From Escherichia coli O157:H7 (GTDB taxonomy: Bacteria > Pseudomonadota > Gammaproteobacteria > Enterobacterales > Enterobacteriaceae), in the NCBI RefSeq assembly GCF_013167455.1, contig NZ_CP038328.1: 64,000 nucleotides of DNA. One strand, 5' to 3'. Positions 8,462 to 11,400 of this stretch are shown piece after piece (position 1 is the first letter of the stretch; each line of letters opens with the position of its first letter). Made by a program: the position numbers.

Positions 8462-11400
8462 GCCCAGGAAGAAAGCCTCGGTGATAACAAACCGGCTGAC
8501 GATCTGCTGAACCTTGAAGGGGTAGATCGTGATTTGGCATTCAAACTGGCCGCCCGTGGCGTTTGTACGCTGGAAGATCTCGCCGAACAGGGCATTGATG
8601 ATCTGGCTGATATCGAAGGGTTGACCGACGAAAAAGCCGGAGCACTGATTATGGCTGCCCGTAATATTTGCTGGTTCGGTGACGAAGCGTAATAAACTGT
8701 AGCAGGAAGGAACAGCATGACAGATGTAACGATTAAAACGCTGGCCGCAGAGCGACAGACCTCCGTGGAACGCCTGGTACAGCAATTTGCTGATGCAGGT
8801 ATCCGGAAGTCTGCTGACGACTCTGTGTCTGCACAAGAGAAACAGACTTTGATTGACCACCTGAATCAGAAAAATTCAGGCCCGGACAAATTGACGCTGC
8901 AACGTAAAACACGCAGCACCCTTAACATTCCTGGTACCGGTGGAAAAAGCAAATCGGTACAAATCGAAGTCCGCAAGAAACGCACCTTTGTGAAACGCGA
9001 TCCGCAAGAGGCTGAACGCCTTGTAGCGGAAGAGCAAGCGCAGCGTGAAGCGGAAGAGCAAGCCCGTCGTGAGGCAGAAGAATCGGCTAAACGCGAGGCG
9101 CAACAAAAAGCTGAACGTGAGGCCGCAGAACAAGCTAAGCGTGAAGCTGCTGAACAAGCGAAACGTGAAGCTGCGGAAAAAGACAAAGTGAGCAATCAAC
9201 AAGACGATATGACTAAAAACGCCCAGGCTGAAAAAGCCCGCCGTGAGCAGGAAGCTGCAGAGCTCAAGCGTAAAGCCGAAGAAGAAGCGCGTCGTAAACT
9301 CGAAGAAGAAGCACGTCGCGTTGCTGAAGAAGCACGTCGTATGGCGGAAGAAAACAAATGGACTGATAACGCGGAACCGACTGAGGATTCCAGCGATTAT
9401 CACGTCACTACTTCTCAACATGCTCGCCAGGCAGAAGACGAAAGCGATCGTGAAGTCGAAGGCGGCCGTGGCCGTGGTCGTAACGCGAAAGCAGCGCGTC
9501 CGAAGAAAGGCAACAAACACGCTGAATCAAAAGCTGATCGTGAAGAAGCACGCGCAGCAGTACGTGGCGGTAAGGGCGGAAAACGTAAAGGTTCTTCGCT
9601 GCAGCAAGGCTTCCAGAAGCCTGCTCAGGCCGTTAACCGTGACGTTGTGATCGGCGAAACTATCACCGTTGGCGAACTGGCGAACAAGATGGCGGTTAAA
9701 GGCTCTCAGGTCATCAAAGCGATGATGAAACTGGGCGCAATGGCAACCATCAACCAGGTTATCGATCAGGAAACCGCACAGCTGGTTGCTGAAGAGATGG
9801 GCCACAAAGTTATCCTGCGTCGTGAAAACGAGCTGGAAGAGGCGGTAATGAGCGACCGTGACACGGGAGCTGCGGCTGAACCGCGCGCTCCGGTTGTGAC
9901 CATCATGGGTCACGTTGACCACGGTAAAACCTCTCTGCTGGACTACATTCGTTCAACGAAAGTGGCCTCTGGCGAAGCGGGCGGCATTACCCAGCACATT
10001 GGTGCATACCACGTTGAAACTGAAAACGGCATGATCACCTTCCTGGACACCCCGGGGCACGCCGCGTTTACTTCAATGCGTGCACGTGGTGCGCAGGCAA
10101 CTGACATCGTAGTCCTGGTTGTTGCTGCCGACGACGGCGTAATGCCGCAGACCATCGAAGCAATCCAGCACGCGAAAGCGGCGCAGGTACCGGTGGTGGT
10201 TGCAGTGAACAAGATCGATAAACCAGAAGCCGATCCGGATCGCGTTAAGAACGAACTCTCCCAGTACGGCATCCTGCCGGAAGAGTGGGGCGGTGAAAGC
10301 CAGTTCGTACACGTATCTGCGAAAGCGGGTACCGGTATCGATGAACTGCTGGACGCTATCCTGCTGCAGGCGGAAGTTCTGGAGCTGAAAGCGGTACGTA
10401 AAGGTATGGCGAGCGGTGCGGTTATCGAATCCTTCCTCGATAAAGGTCGTGGTCCGGTTGCTACCGTTCTGGTACGTGAAGGTACTCTGCACAAGGGCGA
10501 TATCGTTCTGTGTGGCTTCGAATACGGTCGTGTTCGTGCGATGCGTAACGAACTGGGTCAGGAAGTGCTGGAAGCGGGTCCGTCCATTCCGGTGGAAATC
10601 CTCGGCTTGTCCGGTGTTCCGGCTGCGGGTGATGAAGTTACCGTTGTACGTGACGAGAAGAAAGCGCGTGAAGTTGCACTCTATCGTCAGGGTAAATTCC
10701 GCGAAGTTAAACTGGCGCGTCAGCAGAAATCTAAACTCGAGAACATGTTCGCCAACATGACCGAAGGCGAAGTTCACGAAGTGAATATCGTCCTGAAGGC
10801 AGACGTACAGGGTTCTGTCGAAGCGATCTCCGACTCCTTGCTGAAACTGTCTACTGACGAAGTTAAAGTGAAGATCATCGGTTCTGGCGTAGGTGGTATC
10901 ACCGAAACCGACGCCACCTTGGCTGCGGCGTCCAACGCCATCCTGGTTGGCTTCAACGTACGTGCTGATGCCTCTGCACGTAAAGTGATTGAAGCGGAAA
11001 GCCTGGATCTGCGTTACTACTCCGTCATCTATAACCTGATCGACGAAGTGAAAGCGGCGATGAGCGGTATGCTGTCTCCGGAACTGAAACAGCAGATTAT
11101 CGGTCTGGCGGAAGTTCGTGACGTGTTCAAATCGCCGAAATTTGGTGCCATCGCAGGCTGTATGGTTACCGAAGGTGTGGTTAAACGTCACAACCCGATC
11201 CGCGTTCTGCGTGACAACGTGGTTATCTATGAAGGCGAGCTGGAGTCCCTGCGCCGCTTCAAAGATGACGTTAACGAAGTCCGTAACGGTATGGAATGTG
11301 GTATCGGCGTTAAGAACTACAACGACGTCCGCACTGGCGATGTGATCGAAGTATTCGAAATCATCGAGATCCAACGTACCATCGCTTAAGGTTTTTAGGG

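Follow-up and report, generated by a model that had tools for sequence, protein, structure and literature searches.

Translation initiation factor IF2 of Escherichia coli is known in three isoforms, IF2-1, IF2-2 and IF2-3, and the starts of IF2-2 and IF2-3 are a GUG at nucleotides 472-474 and an AUG at nucleotides 493-495 of infB, respectively (Plumbridge 1985 and Sacerdot 1992, cited in PMC3334882 and PMC6511841). Knockouts of these start codons, g474c for GUG158 and t494c for AUG165, have been published (PMC3334882), and an internal site in infB was detected by Ribo-RET (bioRxiv 10.1101/520783). The N-terminal region of IF2 is described in the literature as a flexible linker or a disordered region, a description that runs against the helical spacer predicted below. 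Domain I binds NusA, and domain II is targeted by lamotrigine: suppressors obtained at 15 °C carried only in-frame indels of infB in domain II, either deletions or a duplication, which fell into four recurrent classes among 20 isolates and supported wild-type growth without drug (Stokes et al. 2014, PMC4371806), and IF2Δ8 and IF2Δ17 are further suppressor alleles (PMC10486304). Two other described systems are of relevance for charged, repetitive coding sequence, namely contingency loci such as those of Neisseria (PMC5084427) and the ER/K single alpha-helix (SAH; PMC4647456).

We analysed a window of 64,000 nucleotides of E. coli O157:H7 (contig NZ_CP038328.1), in which the metY-rimP-nusA-infB-rbfA-truB operon context is present as judged by ORFs, Rfam matches (tRNA and rimP leader) and the RefSeq annotation of a 99.8%-identical locus. 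That locus is annotated as infB, within the nusA-infB-rbfA operon, by RefSeq, and the IF2 ORF in the window matches the Pfam families IF-2 (PF11987, 1.9e-43), GTP_EFTU (PF00009, 1.9e-39), IF2_N (PF04760, 4.4e-27) and IF2_assoc (PF08364, 2.2e-17) as well as EF-G_D2, with the IF2 domains in canonical order. It also matches chain f of PDB entry 3jcj (3jcj_f) by sequence (E=2e-232). Pfam domains and RefSeq annotation agree on infB, as an earlier note on this DNA had assigned it, and the interval singled out in that note corresponds to residues 105-215 in the charged N-terminal region. No 100% match to the infB of the window was found among 5,425 complete genomes, and its exact IF2 protein is recorded on 9 contigs. 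That a charged repeat stretch lies near the start of infB is known biology and a textbook part of the gene, and the consequences of the repeats for annotation are small. The features are compiled in Table 1.

Table 1. Features in and around the repetitive part of infB (positions in the window).
Feature	Position	Strand	Evidence or remark
infB, translation initiation factor IF2, 890 aa, isoform IF2-1/alpha	8717..11389	+	ORF; Pfam; RefSeq match; PDB match
Spurious 109-aa antisense ORF, different frame	8866..9195	-	ORF scan
Spurious 214-aa antisense ORF, in codon register with infB	8876..9520	-	Spans the gap between sense TCA54 (8876) and TCA271 (9527)
C->T substitution, Ala103Val (A103V), one base ahead of unit 1	9024..9024	+	Particular to the window
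Longest exact direct repeat (15 nt), AGCGGAAGAGCAAGC at 9025-9039 and 9049-9063	9025..9063	+	Site of the unit-1 duplication allele (AST198)
Block 1 (codons 104-159): seven units of 8 codons (24 nt) in one register, consensus A-E/A-E-Q-A-K-R-E	9026..9193	+	Tandem Repeats Finder 9025-9182; unit table; shuffles
IF2-2 translation initiation region in unit 7 (GCG GAA AAA GAC AAA GTG AGC)	9173..9193	+	Synonymous entropy; upstream conservation
GTG, codon 158, internal in-frame start of IF2-2 (beta)	9188..9190	+	Position; published g474c knockout
Non-repetitive inter-block segment, 19 residues	9194..9250	+	Predicted least structured mRNA in the first 1.5 kb of infB
ATG, codon 165, internal in-frame start of IF2-3 (gamma/beta2)	9209..9211	+	Position; published t494c knockout
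Block 2: four to five 24- or 21-nt units (EAAELKRK / AEEEARRK / LEEEARRV / AEEARRM)	9251..9352	+	Tandem Repeats Finder; unit table
Two exact direct copies of the 14-nt GAAGAAGCACGTCG, 9305-9318 and 9326-9339, offset by 21 nt	9305..9339	+	Site of natural -21 and +21 alleles

Tandem Repeats Finder detected four arrays of head-to-tail copies in the interval (scores 68-88, 74-88% matches), located at 9025-9081 (period 24, 2.4 copies, 84% matches), 9068-9182 (period 24, 4.8 copies, 74% matches), 9269-9318 (period 24, 2.1 copies, 88%) and 9305-9352 (period 21, 2.3 copies, 85%), while a separate repeat search revealed eight copies in a single 24-nt register. The claim that tandem repeats encode the charged IF2 N-domain was borne out in that the period-24 and 24/21 arrays were detected and both strings that had been quoted as repeat units are present: GCGAAACGTGAAGCTGC occurs exactly at 9158-9174 and with two mismatches at 9134-9150 (2 matches versus 0.18 expected), and GAAGAAGCACGTCG, besides its two exact copies, recurs with one mismatch at 9281 (5 matches versus 0.52 expected). 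Block 1, made of 8-residue AEEQAKRE-type units of which the final one (AAEKDKVS) is degenerate, is carried only by full-length IF2-1, and block 2 (approximately codons 179-212; 8- and 7-residue units), which lies within 'domain II', is common to all three isoforms. Copies in the arrays are imperfect, no exact direct repeat being longer than 15 nt, and the units share exact matches of 5-15 nt that are spaced by 21 or 24 nt.

The seven units of block 1 display an in-register nucleotide identity of 0.615, compared to 0.374 ± 0.021 when the order of codons is shuffled, with 0 of 5000 shuffles reaching the observed value. By synonymous shuffling, the units are no more alike in nucleotides than the protein requires (P=0.87): identical codons were present at 44 of 100 in-register positions with the same residue versus 48.0 ± 4.2 after shuffling, and adjacent units had 18 identical codons versus 15.7 ± 2.4 expected. 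As the nucleotide identity only equals the level of the synonymous shuffle, the DNA repeat therefore appears to be the shadow of an old protein repeat. The order of the units is kept across ~60 Enterobacteriaceae. ERL and Val158 lie 55 residues apart in 48 species and 63 residues apart in 15, the two groups differing by exactly one unit, and the protein encoded by block 2 hardly varies in sequence or length between genera. We regard the nucleotide periodicity as a by-product of an old and positionally conserved protein repeat, rather than of recent duplication or homogenisation of the DNA.

At the protein level, E, K and R together make up 53% and 65% of blocks 1 and 2, with 3% and 10% hydrophobic residues and 17 and 19 opposite-charge pairs at i/i+4, respectively; both blocks contain 23-28% Ala and neither Gly nor Pro. 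AlphaFold2 (pTM 0.25, from a shallow alignment of 13 sequences) placed helices at residues 96-158 and 164-216 with a break at 159-163, the mean pLDDT of ten-residue blocks being 87-92 over residues 101-150 and 82-90 over residues 171-210, and the predicted break coincides with the internal starts. For each block the prediction is a single long alpha-helix that stands alone and is stabilised by salt bridges. Acting together as a spacer or tether, the two helices may link the small N-terminal subdomain N1 to the ribosome-binding core. We consider it very probable that the interval consists of two Ala/Glu/Arg/Lys-rich arrays flanking the internal starts, and that these arrays represent an old protein repeat, a predicted helical spacer, in which units are occasionally gained or lost and such changes are tolerated.

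The known starts GUG158 and AUG165 are located inside the interval and went unremarked in the earlier note. The valine at codon 158 is encoded by GTG in 64 of 64 species of Enterobacteriaceae, versus a share of 24% for GTG among the valine codons of infB, and a Met occupies the position of AUG165 in 53 of the 64 species. The sequence upstream of GTG158 is conserved in the 64 species, with a weak GGA(A) at -13 to -11 within an invariant GCGGAAAAAGACAAA and no strong match to AGGAGG, and normalised synonymous entropy is lowest for codons 152-159 (0.086 versus 0.20-0.59 in the other units). On the basis of this sequence comparison, the start codon and its upstream region are conserved beyond the need of the protein. 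The predicted accessibility of AUG165 ranks at the 96th percentile of in-frame positions, and eight of the ten most open positions predicted for the mRNA over the first 1.5 kb of infB fall at 9197-9221. The known starts that yield IF2-2 and IF2-3 thus sit at the block junction: GUG158 resides within the degenerate last unit of block 1, which probably doubles as the ribosome-binding region of IF2-2, and AUG165 resides in the short segment thereafter. GUG158 and AUG165 are two genuine start codons that gene callers will not report.

Slipped-strand-type length variation across strains, as the earlier note had anticipated, does occur. Of the 5,426 complete E. coli genomes, at least 52 carry one of twelve length haplotypes, which differ by 21, 24, 48 or 96 nt; this count is a lower bound because the junction screen covered indels with at least 5 nt of microhomology, and 29 of these records represent one resequenced clone. 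The variation is real but rare, at ~1% of genomes. All 12 haplotypes are in frame and multiples of 21 or 24 nt; representatives that were read directly have clean junctions, and the alleles of the other records were assigned from identical BLAST rows. In block 1 we observed +24, +48, -24 and -96 alleles (3 to 9 units), including a +24 duplication of unit 1 in AST198, and in block 2 a -24 allele (CNR20191027/Esc lineage), a -21 allele (AR_0149/AH21H025/H32) and a +21 allele (CMZE046), the resulting IF2 proteins having 858, 882, 883, 897, 898 and 906 aa. One and the same 898-aa protein, WP_000133053.1, is encoded by alleles with three different DNA junctions, and therefore the events that change length recur. 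Five variant proteins are recorded on 64-570 contigs each in a wider collection, and some natural alleles on 353-570 contigs. As to the queries, the junction-specific one also matched ~590 records through natural SNPs, and the whole +24 allele was uninformative because wild-type genomes align to it as two overlapping parts and are ranked above the true carriers. HNSQ2209, 2018-18.25PC and EC5654 were rejected as length alleles, the sequence on reading being of wild-type length, as was T2, which has the same match row as the false positive HNSQ2209.

Misaligned replication or recombination might occasionally add or remove whole units via the shared 5-15-nt matches, slippage and unequal recombination being indistinguishable here as the source of the alleles. 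An in-frame change would shift the length of the helix by only ~10-12 Å per unit, and unit changes may be tolerated and persist at low frequency because nothing except helix length is altered. Given the near-invariance of block 2 across genera, its length may matter more than the word 'tolerated' implies. A literature search on infB tandem repeats and slippage found no paper on natural length polymorphism of infB. Sequence conservation of infB among clinical isolates has been the subject of earlier work. The length of infB does vary in E. coli, and the proteins of 858-906 aa are genuine alleles, which is relevant for infB as a typing or phylogenetic marker.

The repeats had also been said to produce long antisense ORFs, with 8866..9520 given as an example. 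These ORFs are indeed spurious, but the example merges two ORFs in different frames (8876..9520 and 8866..9195), and their cause is the scarcity of TTA, CTA and TCA codons rather than the repeats. The idea that either ORF is a real overlapping gene can draw on the open frame of 214 aa, yet neither has a Pfam match, and the ORF boundaries coincide with sense TCA codons, the only ones in the vicinity. Stops break the in-phase antisense frame in 33 of the 61 related sequences compared, and both out-of-phase frames have stops in 61 of 61 across 8957-9520 (the window's own such stops lie outside 8866..9195). Moreover, longer antisense ORFs of this sort (452 and 489 aa) extend over the non-repetitive 3' part of infB and over nusA. 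We rejected a real antisense gene on account of the missing Pfam matches, the interrupted frames in relatives and the TCA-set boundaries, its probability being practically nil, and the antisense ORFs in infB should not be annotated as genes.

If the arrays were instead true tandem duplications of DNA, either recent or homogenised by gene conversion, infB should behave as a hypervariable VNTR. Their detection by Tandem Repeats Finder, the exact repeats of 14-15 nt and the alleles of unit length are all compatible with this scenario, but the synonymous sites differ between units as much as chance allows, both overall and between adjacent units, orthologous units hold the same order across genera and ~99% of the 5,426 genomes have the same infB length. 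For these three reasons the recent-duplication reading was rejected, and we judge it very unlikely. It could also be that the periodic sequence is kept mainly for the mRNA, in that a weakly structured stretch rich in GAA, GCN, CGT and AAA keeps the internal ribosome-binding site accessible. The openness predicted for 9197-9221 and the near-invariant synonymous sites around GUG158 fit this possibility; however, the constraint is local to unit 7 and the inter-block segment, the synonymous entropy of units 3-6 is ordinary (0.37-0.59), block 2 lies downstream of the internal starts and the conserved feature is the amino-acid periodicity. An mRNA-centred explanation is thus unlikely compared to an old protein repeat.

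With respect to the length alleles, repeats are a classic cause of misassembly and 29 records come from a single project, which raises the concern of assembly or sequencing artefacts. By contrast, the length changes are all in frame, correspond exactly to whole periods and have clean junctions, and identical alleles were found in assemblies made independently for isolates of different countries and hosts. The exact variant proteins recur on 64-570 contigs, and sequencing reads are far longer than the repeat, which is imperfect and spans at most 170 nt, leaving an artefact exceedingly improbable. Alternatively, the array could be an adaptive 'tuning knob' in which gain or loss of units is selected since helix length changes IF2 function, for example through the length of the NusA tether (block 1) or through ribosome biogenesis in the cold and drug binding (block 2). 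In support of such selection, lamotrigine at 15 °C yields only in-frame domain II indels in recurrent classes, and a second strain gave further deletions. Moreover, some of the natural alleles are widespread, one protein variant arose at least three times and, according to a preprint, the N-terminal disordered regions are longer in psychrophiles. Allele frequencies are low, however, recurrence is also predicted by mutational bias alone, block 1 holds exactly 7 or 8 units across the whole family, and the growth of the suppressors like wild type without drug argues for near-neutrality, so that we find an adaptive knob rather doubtful. We nevertheless put forward, as a tentative possibility, a 'length dial' whereby natural block 2 alleles, as standing variants, alter the lamotrigine-sensitive function of IF2 at cold temperature and the number of block 1 units tunes the reach of N1 to NusA. 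If so, wild strains with block 2 alleles would be intrinsically lamotrigine-resistant, and infB would represent a low-rate in-frame dial rather than neutral repeat noise. Our preferred reading remains an old protein repeat that forms a predicted helical spacer and tolerates an occasional change in unit number.

Compared to the described E. coli system of three IF2 isoforms, the window has the same gene with the same start codons and the same N-terminal difference of 157 and 164 residues; there is no difference in kind, although the window has one private substitution, A103V. The natural block 2 alleles (-24, -21 and +21) resemble the lamotrigine suppressors both in the kind of change and in the segment affected, but they come from natural isolates whereas the suppressors were selected by drug in the laboratory at 15 °C, and one of the latter, Δ17 (residues 176-192), is not a whole-unit change. 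On the basis of this resemblance to laboratory lamotrigine-resistance mutations, the natural alleles offer a ready-made allelic series for the role of domain II in the cold. Like contingency loci, infB undergoes recurrent repeat-mediated change of copy number inside a coding region. Contingency loci, however, have perfect repeats of 1-7 nt and vary within a culture, whereas the infB units are imperfect with 21-24 nt and vary in ~1% of genomes. In infB we found neither a perfect short unit nor a shift of frame or promoter spacing: the frame is kept in all 12 haplotypes, precluding on/off switching. Myosin and caldesmon provide examples of ER/K or charged single alpha-helix motifs, with which the IF2 blocks share a high content of E, K and R, dense opposite charges at i/i+4, the lack of Gly and Pro and almost no hydrophobic residues. 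Both blocks are charge-rich without a hydrophobic seam and, with pLDDT near 90, are likewise predicted to form long, isolated and uninterrupted helices that would make no tertiary contacts, although block 1 differs from ER/K motifs in being unusually rich in Ala (28%) and Gln (12%), with a net charge of -5.

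The interval at 9030-9360 encodes residues 105-215 of IF2, the infB product, within the E. coli operon metY-rimP-nusA-infB-rbfA-truB; PDB chain 3jcj_f matches the first 394 residues of the protein (E=2e-232), and 8900-9500 is 99.8% identical to RefSeq-annotated infB of O157:H7 strains. These strains were also the best matches among 5,425 complete E. coli genomes, none of which matched this segment at 100%. The window carries an Ala103Val substitution (C to T at 9024, one base 5' of unit 1, the first 8-codon repeat), and, compared over the whole gene, O157 strain PV15-279 differs at only one more site, a synonymous T/C at 10919. 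The exact 890-aa IF2 is recorded on 9 contigs, 'E. coli 3.4880' among them. In the genome searches, one of 5,426 E. coli genomes had no match to this segment of an essential gene, one match lay on a plasmid, one genome had matches in up to 5 places, and the record origin of strain 2015C-4498 splits infB at approximately 9310. An Rfam search gave no match within the interval and matches in its flanks only; a 120-aa ORF (6180-6542, minus strand) crosses the metY tRNA and is likely spurious.

Features of the infB region and natural length alleles of its repeat blocks
Feature	Coordinates	Strand	Details
infB	8717-11389	+	890-aa IF2; Pfam IF2_N, IF2_assoc, GTP_EFTU, EF-G_D2, IF-2, GTP_EFTU_D2
metY, initiator tRNA	6442-6515		Rfam
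rimP leader	6607-6707		Rfam
naRNA4 (CssrE, nucleoid-associated ncRNA)	11406-11476	+	Rfam, 75.6 bits; infB-rbfA intergenic
S15 leader	12990-13104		Rfam
SraG	13334-13500	-	Rfam; match cut by edge of searched region
Imperfect tandem array	9025-9081		Tandem Repeats Finder; period 24, 84% matches
Imperfect tandem array	9068-9182		Tandem Repeats Finder; period 24, 4.8 copies, 74% matches
Imperfect tandem array	9269-9318		Tandem Repeats Finder; period 24, 88% matches
Imperfect tandem array	9305-9352		Tandem Repeats Finder; period 21, 85% matches
Weak tandem array	9434-9470		Tandem Repeats Finder; period 18, 2.1 copies, 78% matches; 3' of interval, Asp/Glu-rich DESDREV stretch directly before GGRGRGR motif
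IF2-2 start	9188-9190	+	GTG, codon 158; position of published g474c knockout
IF2-3 start	9209-9211	+	ATG, codon 165; position of published t494c knockout
214-aa antisense ORF	8876-9520	-	codon register with infB
109-aa antisense ORF	8866-9195	-	frame other than that of 214-aa ORF
489-aa antisense ORF	7391-8860	-	codon register with nusA
452-aa antisense ORF	10073-11431	-	codon register with 3' part of infB
Block 1, +24			unit 1 duplicated; AST198, BS74R-D, XJ5.2, IAL7250
Block 1, +24 and +24			units 1 and 6 duplicated, 906 aa; SY033, M15
Block 1, +24			unit 5 duplicated; 02B17CRGN002
Block 1, +24			hybrid unit; O157 Al Ain, WS4437A-1
Block 1, +24			unit 6 duplicated; N10, N25, DETEC-S565, 23CRST038
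Block 1, +48			units 5-6 duplicated; OkiPb01695
Block 1, -24			unit 5 lost; 2824
Block 1, -24			unit 6 lost; EC130, bR_120_Kylling
Block 1, -96			units 2-5 lost; N68
Block 2, -24			29 records, single clone; CNR20191027 and Esc series
Block 2, -21			AR_0149, AH21H025, H32 (two records)
Block 2, +21			CMZE046

The nucleotide tandem repeats proposed for 9030-9360 from the sequence were confirmed: Tandem Repeats Finder calls four imperfect arrays there, and both quoted repeat strings are present and have near-copies spaced by 24 or 21 nt, well above shuffle expectation. Eight repeat copies share one 24-nt register in a direct-repeat search of the interval. Read by codons, block 1 consists of seven 8-codon units (9026-9193, 56 residues) and block 2 spans approximately 9251-9352 (31 residues). 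In-register nucleotide identity among the block-1 units is 0.615 versus 0.374±0.021 when codon order is shuffled within the block, and as 0/5000 shuffles attained the observed value, the periodicity is real. We then shuffled synonymous codons with the protein held fixed and counted identical codons at same-residue in-register positions, finding 44/100 versus 48.0±4.2 expected (P=0.87), and 18 versus 15.7±2.4 for adjacent units. This shuffle thus gave no indication that block-1 units were recently duplicated or homogenised by gene conversion. Units 5 and 6, for instance, are identical over all eight residues, yet 4 of their 8 codons differ. On the basis of the synonymous shuffle and a longest exact direct repeat of only 15 nt, the nucleotide periodicity is a by-product of the protein repeat, a shadow whose synonymous sites have long since been randomised. 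The earlier note's reading, that the repeats code for the charged IF2 N-terminal region, is supported with these and the following corrections.

A degenerate DNA pattern for a 12-residue motif retrieved 66 loci from a one-genome-per-species collection, nearly all from Enterobacteriaceae, with unit order kept across Escherichia, Klebsiella, Cedecea, Buttiauxella and others. The ERL motif and Val158 stand 55 residues apart in 48 species, 63 apart in 15 and 54 apart in one Yersinia, so that arrays of different genera differ by exactly one 8-residue unit. In genera whose block 1 has eight units, the place of the extra unit varies by lineage (alignment columns 49-56 versus 73-80), which suggests independent unit gains, alignment inside the repeat being ambiguous. 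Block 2 is near-invariant between genera in sequence and length alike. One contig with the enterobacterial infB pattern, USCO01000192.1 (3.5 kb, 'uncultured Clostridiales' MAG), breaks frame directly after a 12-residue stretch and appears to be chimeric or contaminated.

Length variation across strains, anticipated from the slippage-prone appearance of the repeats, was indeed found. When the 5,425 matching genomes were ranked and evenly spaced samples inspected, 86/88 full-coverage rows had the exact query length, and the two exceptions pointed to AST198 (+24 nt, unit 1 exactly duplicated) and N68 (-96 nt, lacking units 2-5). Because megablast requires a 28-nt exact word, we screened with junction-specific queries containing no 28-mer common to wild type, and then with a verified concatenation of 134 junctions; representatives were read codon by codon, and unfetched rows were assigned an allele when their BLAST row was identical to that of a verified representative. 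This yielded 12 haplotypes, carried by at least 52 records (~1% of complete E. coli genomes), all in frame and in multiples of 21 or 24 nt. Events concentrate at the most similar neighbours (units 1/2, units 5/6 and the 14-nt repeat pair 9305/9326), and unit 7 and the inter-block segment are unaffected in all 12. The 898-aa protein WP_000133053.1 arises from three distinct DNA junctions, indicating that length changes recur independently, and the two separate +24 duplications on one infB in SY033 and M15 (South Korea; WP_276332224.1) indicate that they can accumulate. The variants are genuine circulating alleles: in a far larger protein collection, exact variant proteins occur on 570, 398, 353, 88 and 64 contigs (wild type >1000). 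Length alleles probably also explain the 90-95% identity band of the genome searches, whose 48-51 records are close to their number. N68, N10 and N25, three CSF isolates of a single 'N' series, all carry infB length alleles.

The earlier note overlooked the known internal starts within the interval: GTG158 and ATG165 are the published starts of the IF2-2 and IF2-3 isoforms, the knockouts g474c and t494c hitting these very bases (PMC3334882), and an internal infB start has been detected by retapamulin ribosome profiling. GTG158 sits within unit 7, the degenerate last unit of block 1. Its codon is GTG in 64/64 species, versus 20/84 valine codons in infB overall. Among 46 distinct seven-unit sequences, codons 152-159 have a normalised synonymous entropy of 0.086 versus 0.20-0.59 for the other units, GCG GAA AAA GAC AAA GTG AGC being essentially invariant. 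Within the first 1.5 kb of infB mRNA, partition-function folding predicts the most open stretch at 9197-9221, with ATG165 at the 96th and GTG158 at the 82nd percentile of openness; the only Shine-Dalgarno candidate is a weak GGA(A).

Glu makes up 30% of block 1 (residues 98-157), Ala 28%, Lys+Arg 23% and Gln 12%; hydrophobic residues account for 3%, Gly and Pro are absent, and there are 17 opposite-charge pairs at i/i+4 spacing. In block 2 (residues 173-212), Glu and Lys+Arg each contribute 33% and Ala 23%, and the count of i/i+4 pairs is 19. In an AlphaFold2 prediction (13-sequence alignment, pTM 0.25), residues 96-158 and 164-216 each form a long isolated helix, with mean pLDDT per ten-residue block of 87-92 over 101-150 and of 82-90 over 171-210. 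The predicted helices are separated by a break of five residues (159-163), with disorder beyond 216, which would place the isoform boundary at the inter-helix break. The modelled arrays fit an ER/K-type single alpha-helix spacer, to which each 8-residue unit would add ~12 Å at the standard rise of 1.5 Å per residue. Domain I of IF2-alpha (full-length IF2) binds NusA, and N1 is tied to the rest through a 'flexible linker' (PMC12297416); a preprint terms the N-terminal region disordered and a driver of cold-induced condensation.

The antisense ORF attributed to the repeats at 8866-9520 proved to be a merger of two ORFs in different frames (8876-9520 and 8866-9195). That antisense ORFs here are spurious holds: a Pfam search of them gave no match, and among 61 related sequences stops occur in the in-phase antisense frame in 33 and in both other antisense frames in all 61. 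That the repeats cause them does not. An antisense stop in phase with codons needs a sense TTA, CTA or TCA, of which infB has four (TCA at 54, 271, 413 and 453) and nusA two; the gap from TCA54 to TCA271 is the exact extent of the 214-aa ORF, and the 452- and 489-aa antisense ORFs span non-repetitive infB and nusA. The ORFs therefore reflect the scarcity of these codons and not the repeats, and any ORF-based caller would list the 489- and 452-aa examples.

Already known are the repetitive, charged N-terminal region of IF2, its three isoforms and in-frame indels obtained in the laboratory; our small additions are a catalogue, at population level, of unit-length alleles, and the match in position between the isoform boundary and a predicted helix break. 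Lamotrigine works via IF2 domain II, and each of 20 lamotrigine suppressors that arose spontaneously carried an in-frame deletion or a duplication in that domain; they fell into only four classes and grew like wild type (PMC4371806); a second study described further domain II deletions, including Δ176-192 (PMC10486304). At the sequence level, block-2 alleles of natural isolates represent the same type of change as these laboratory suppressors.
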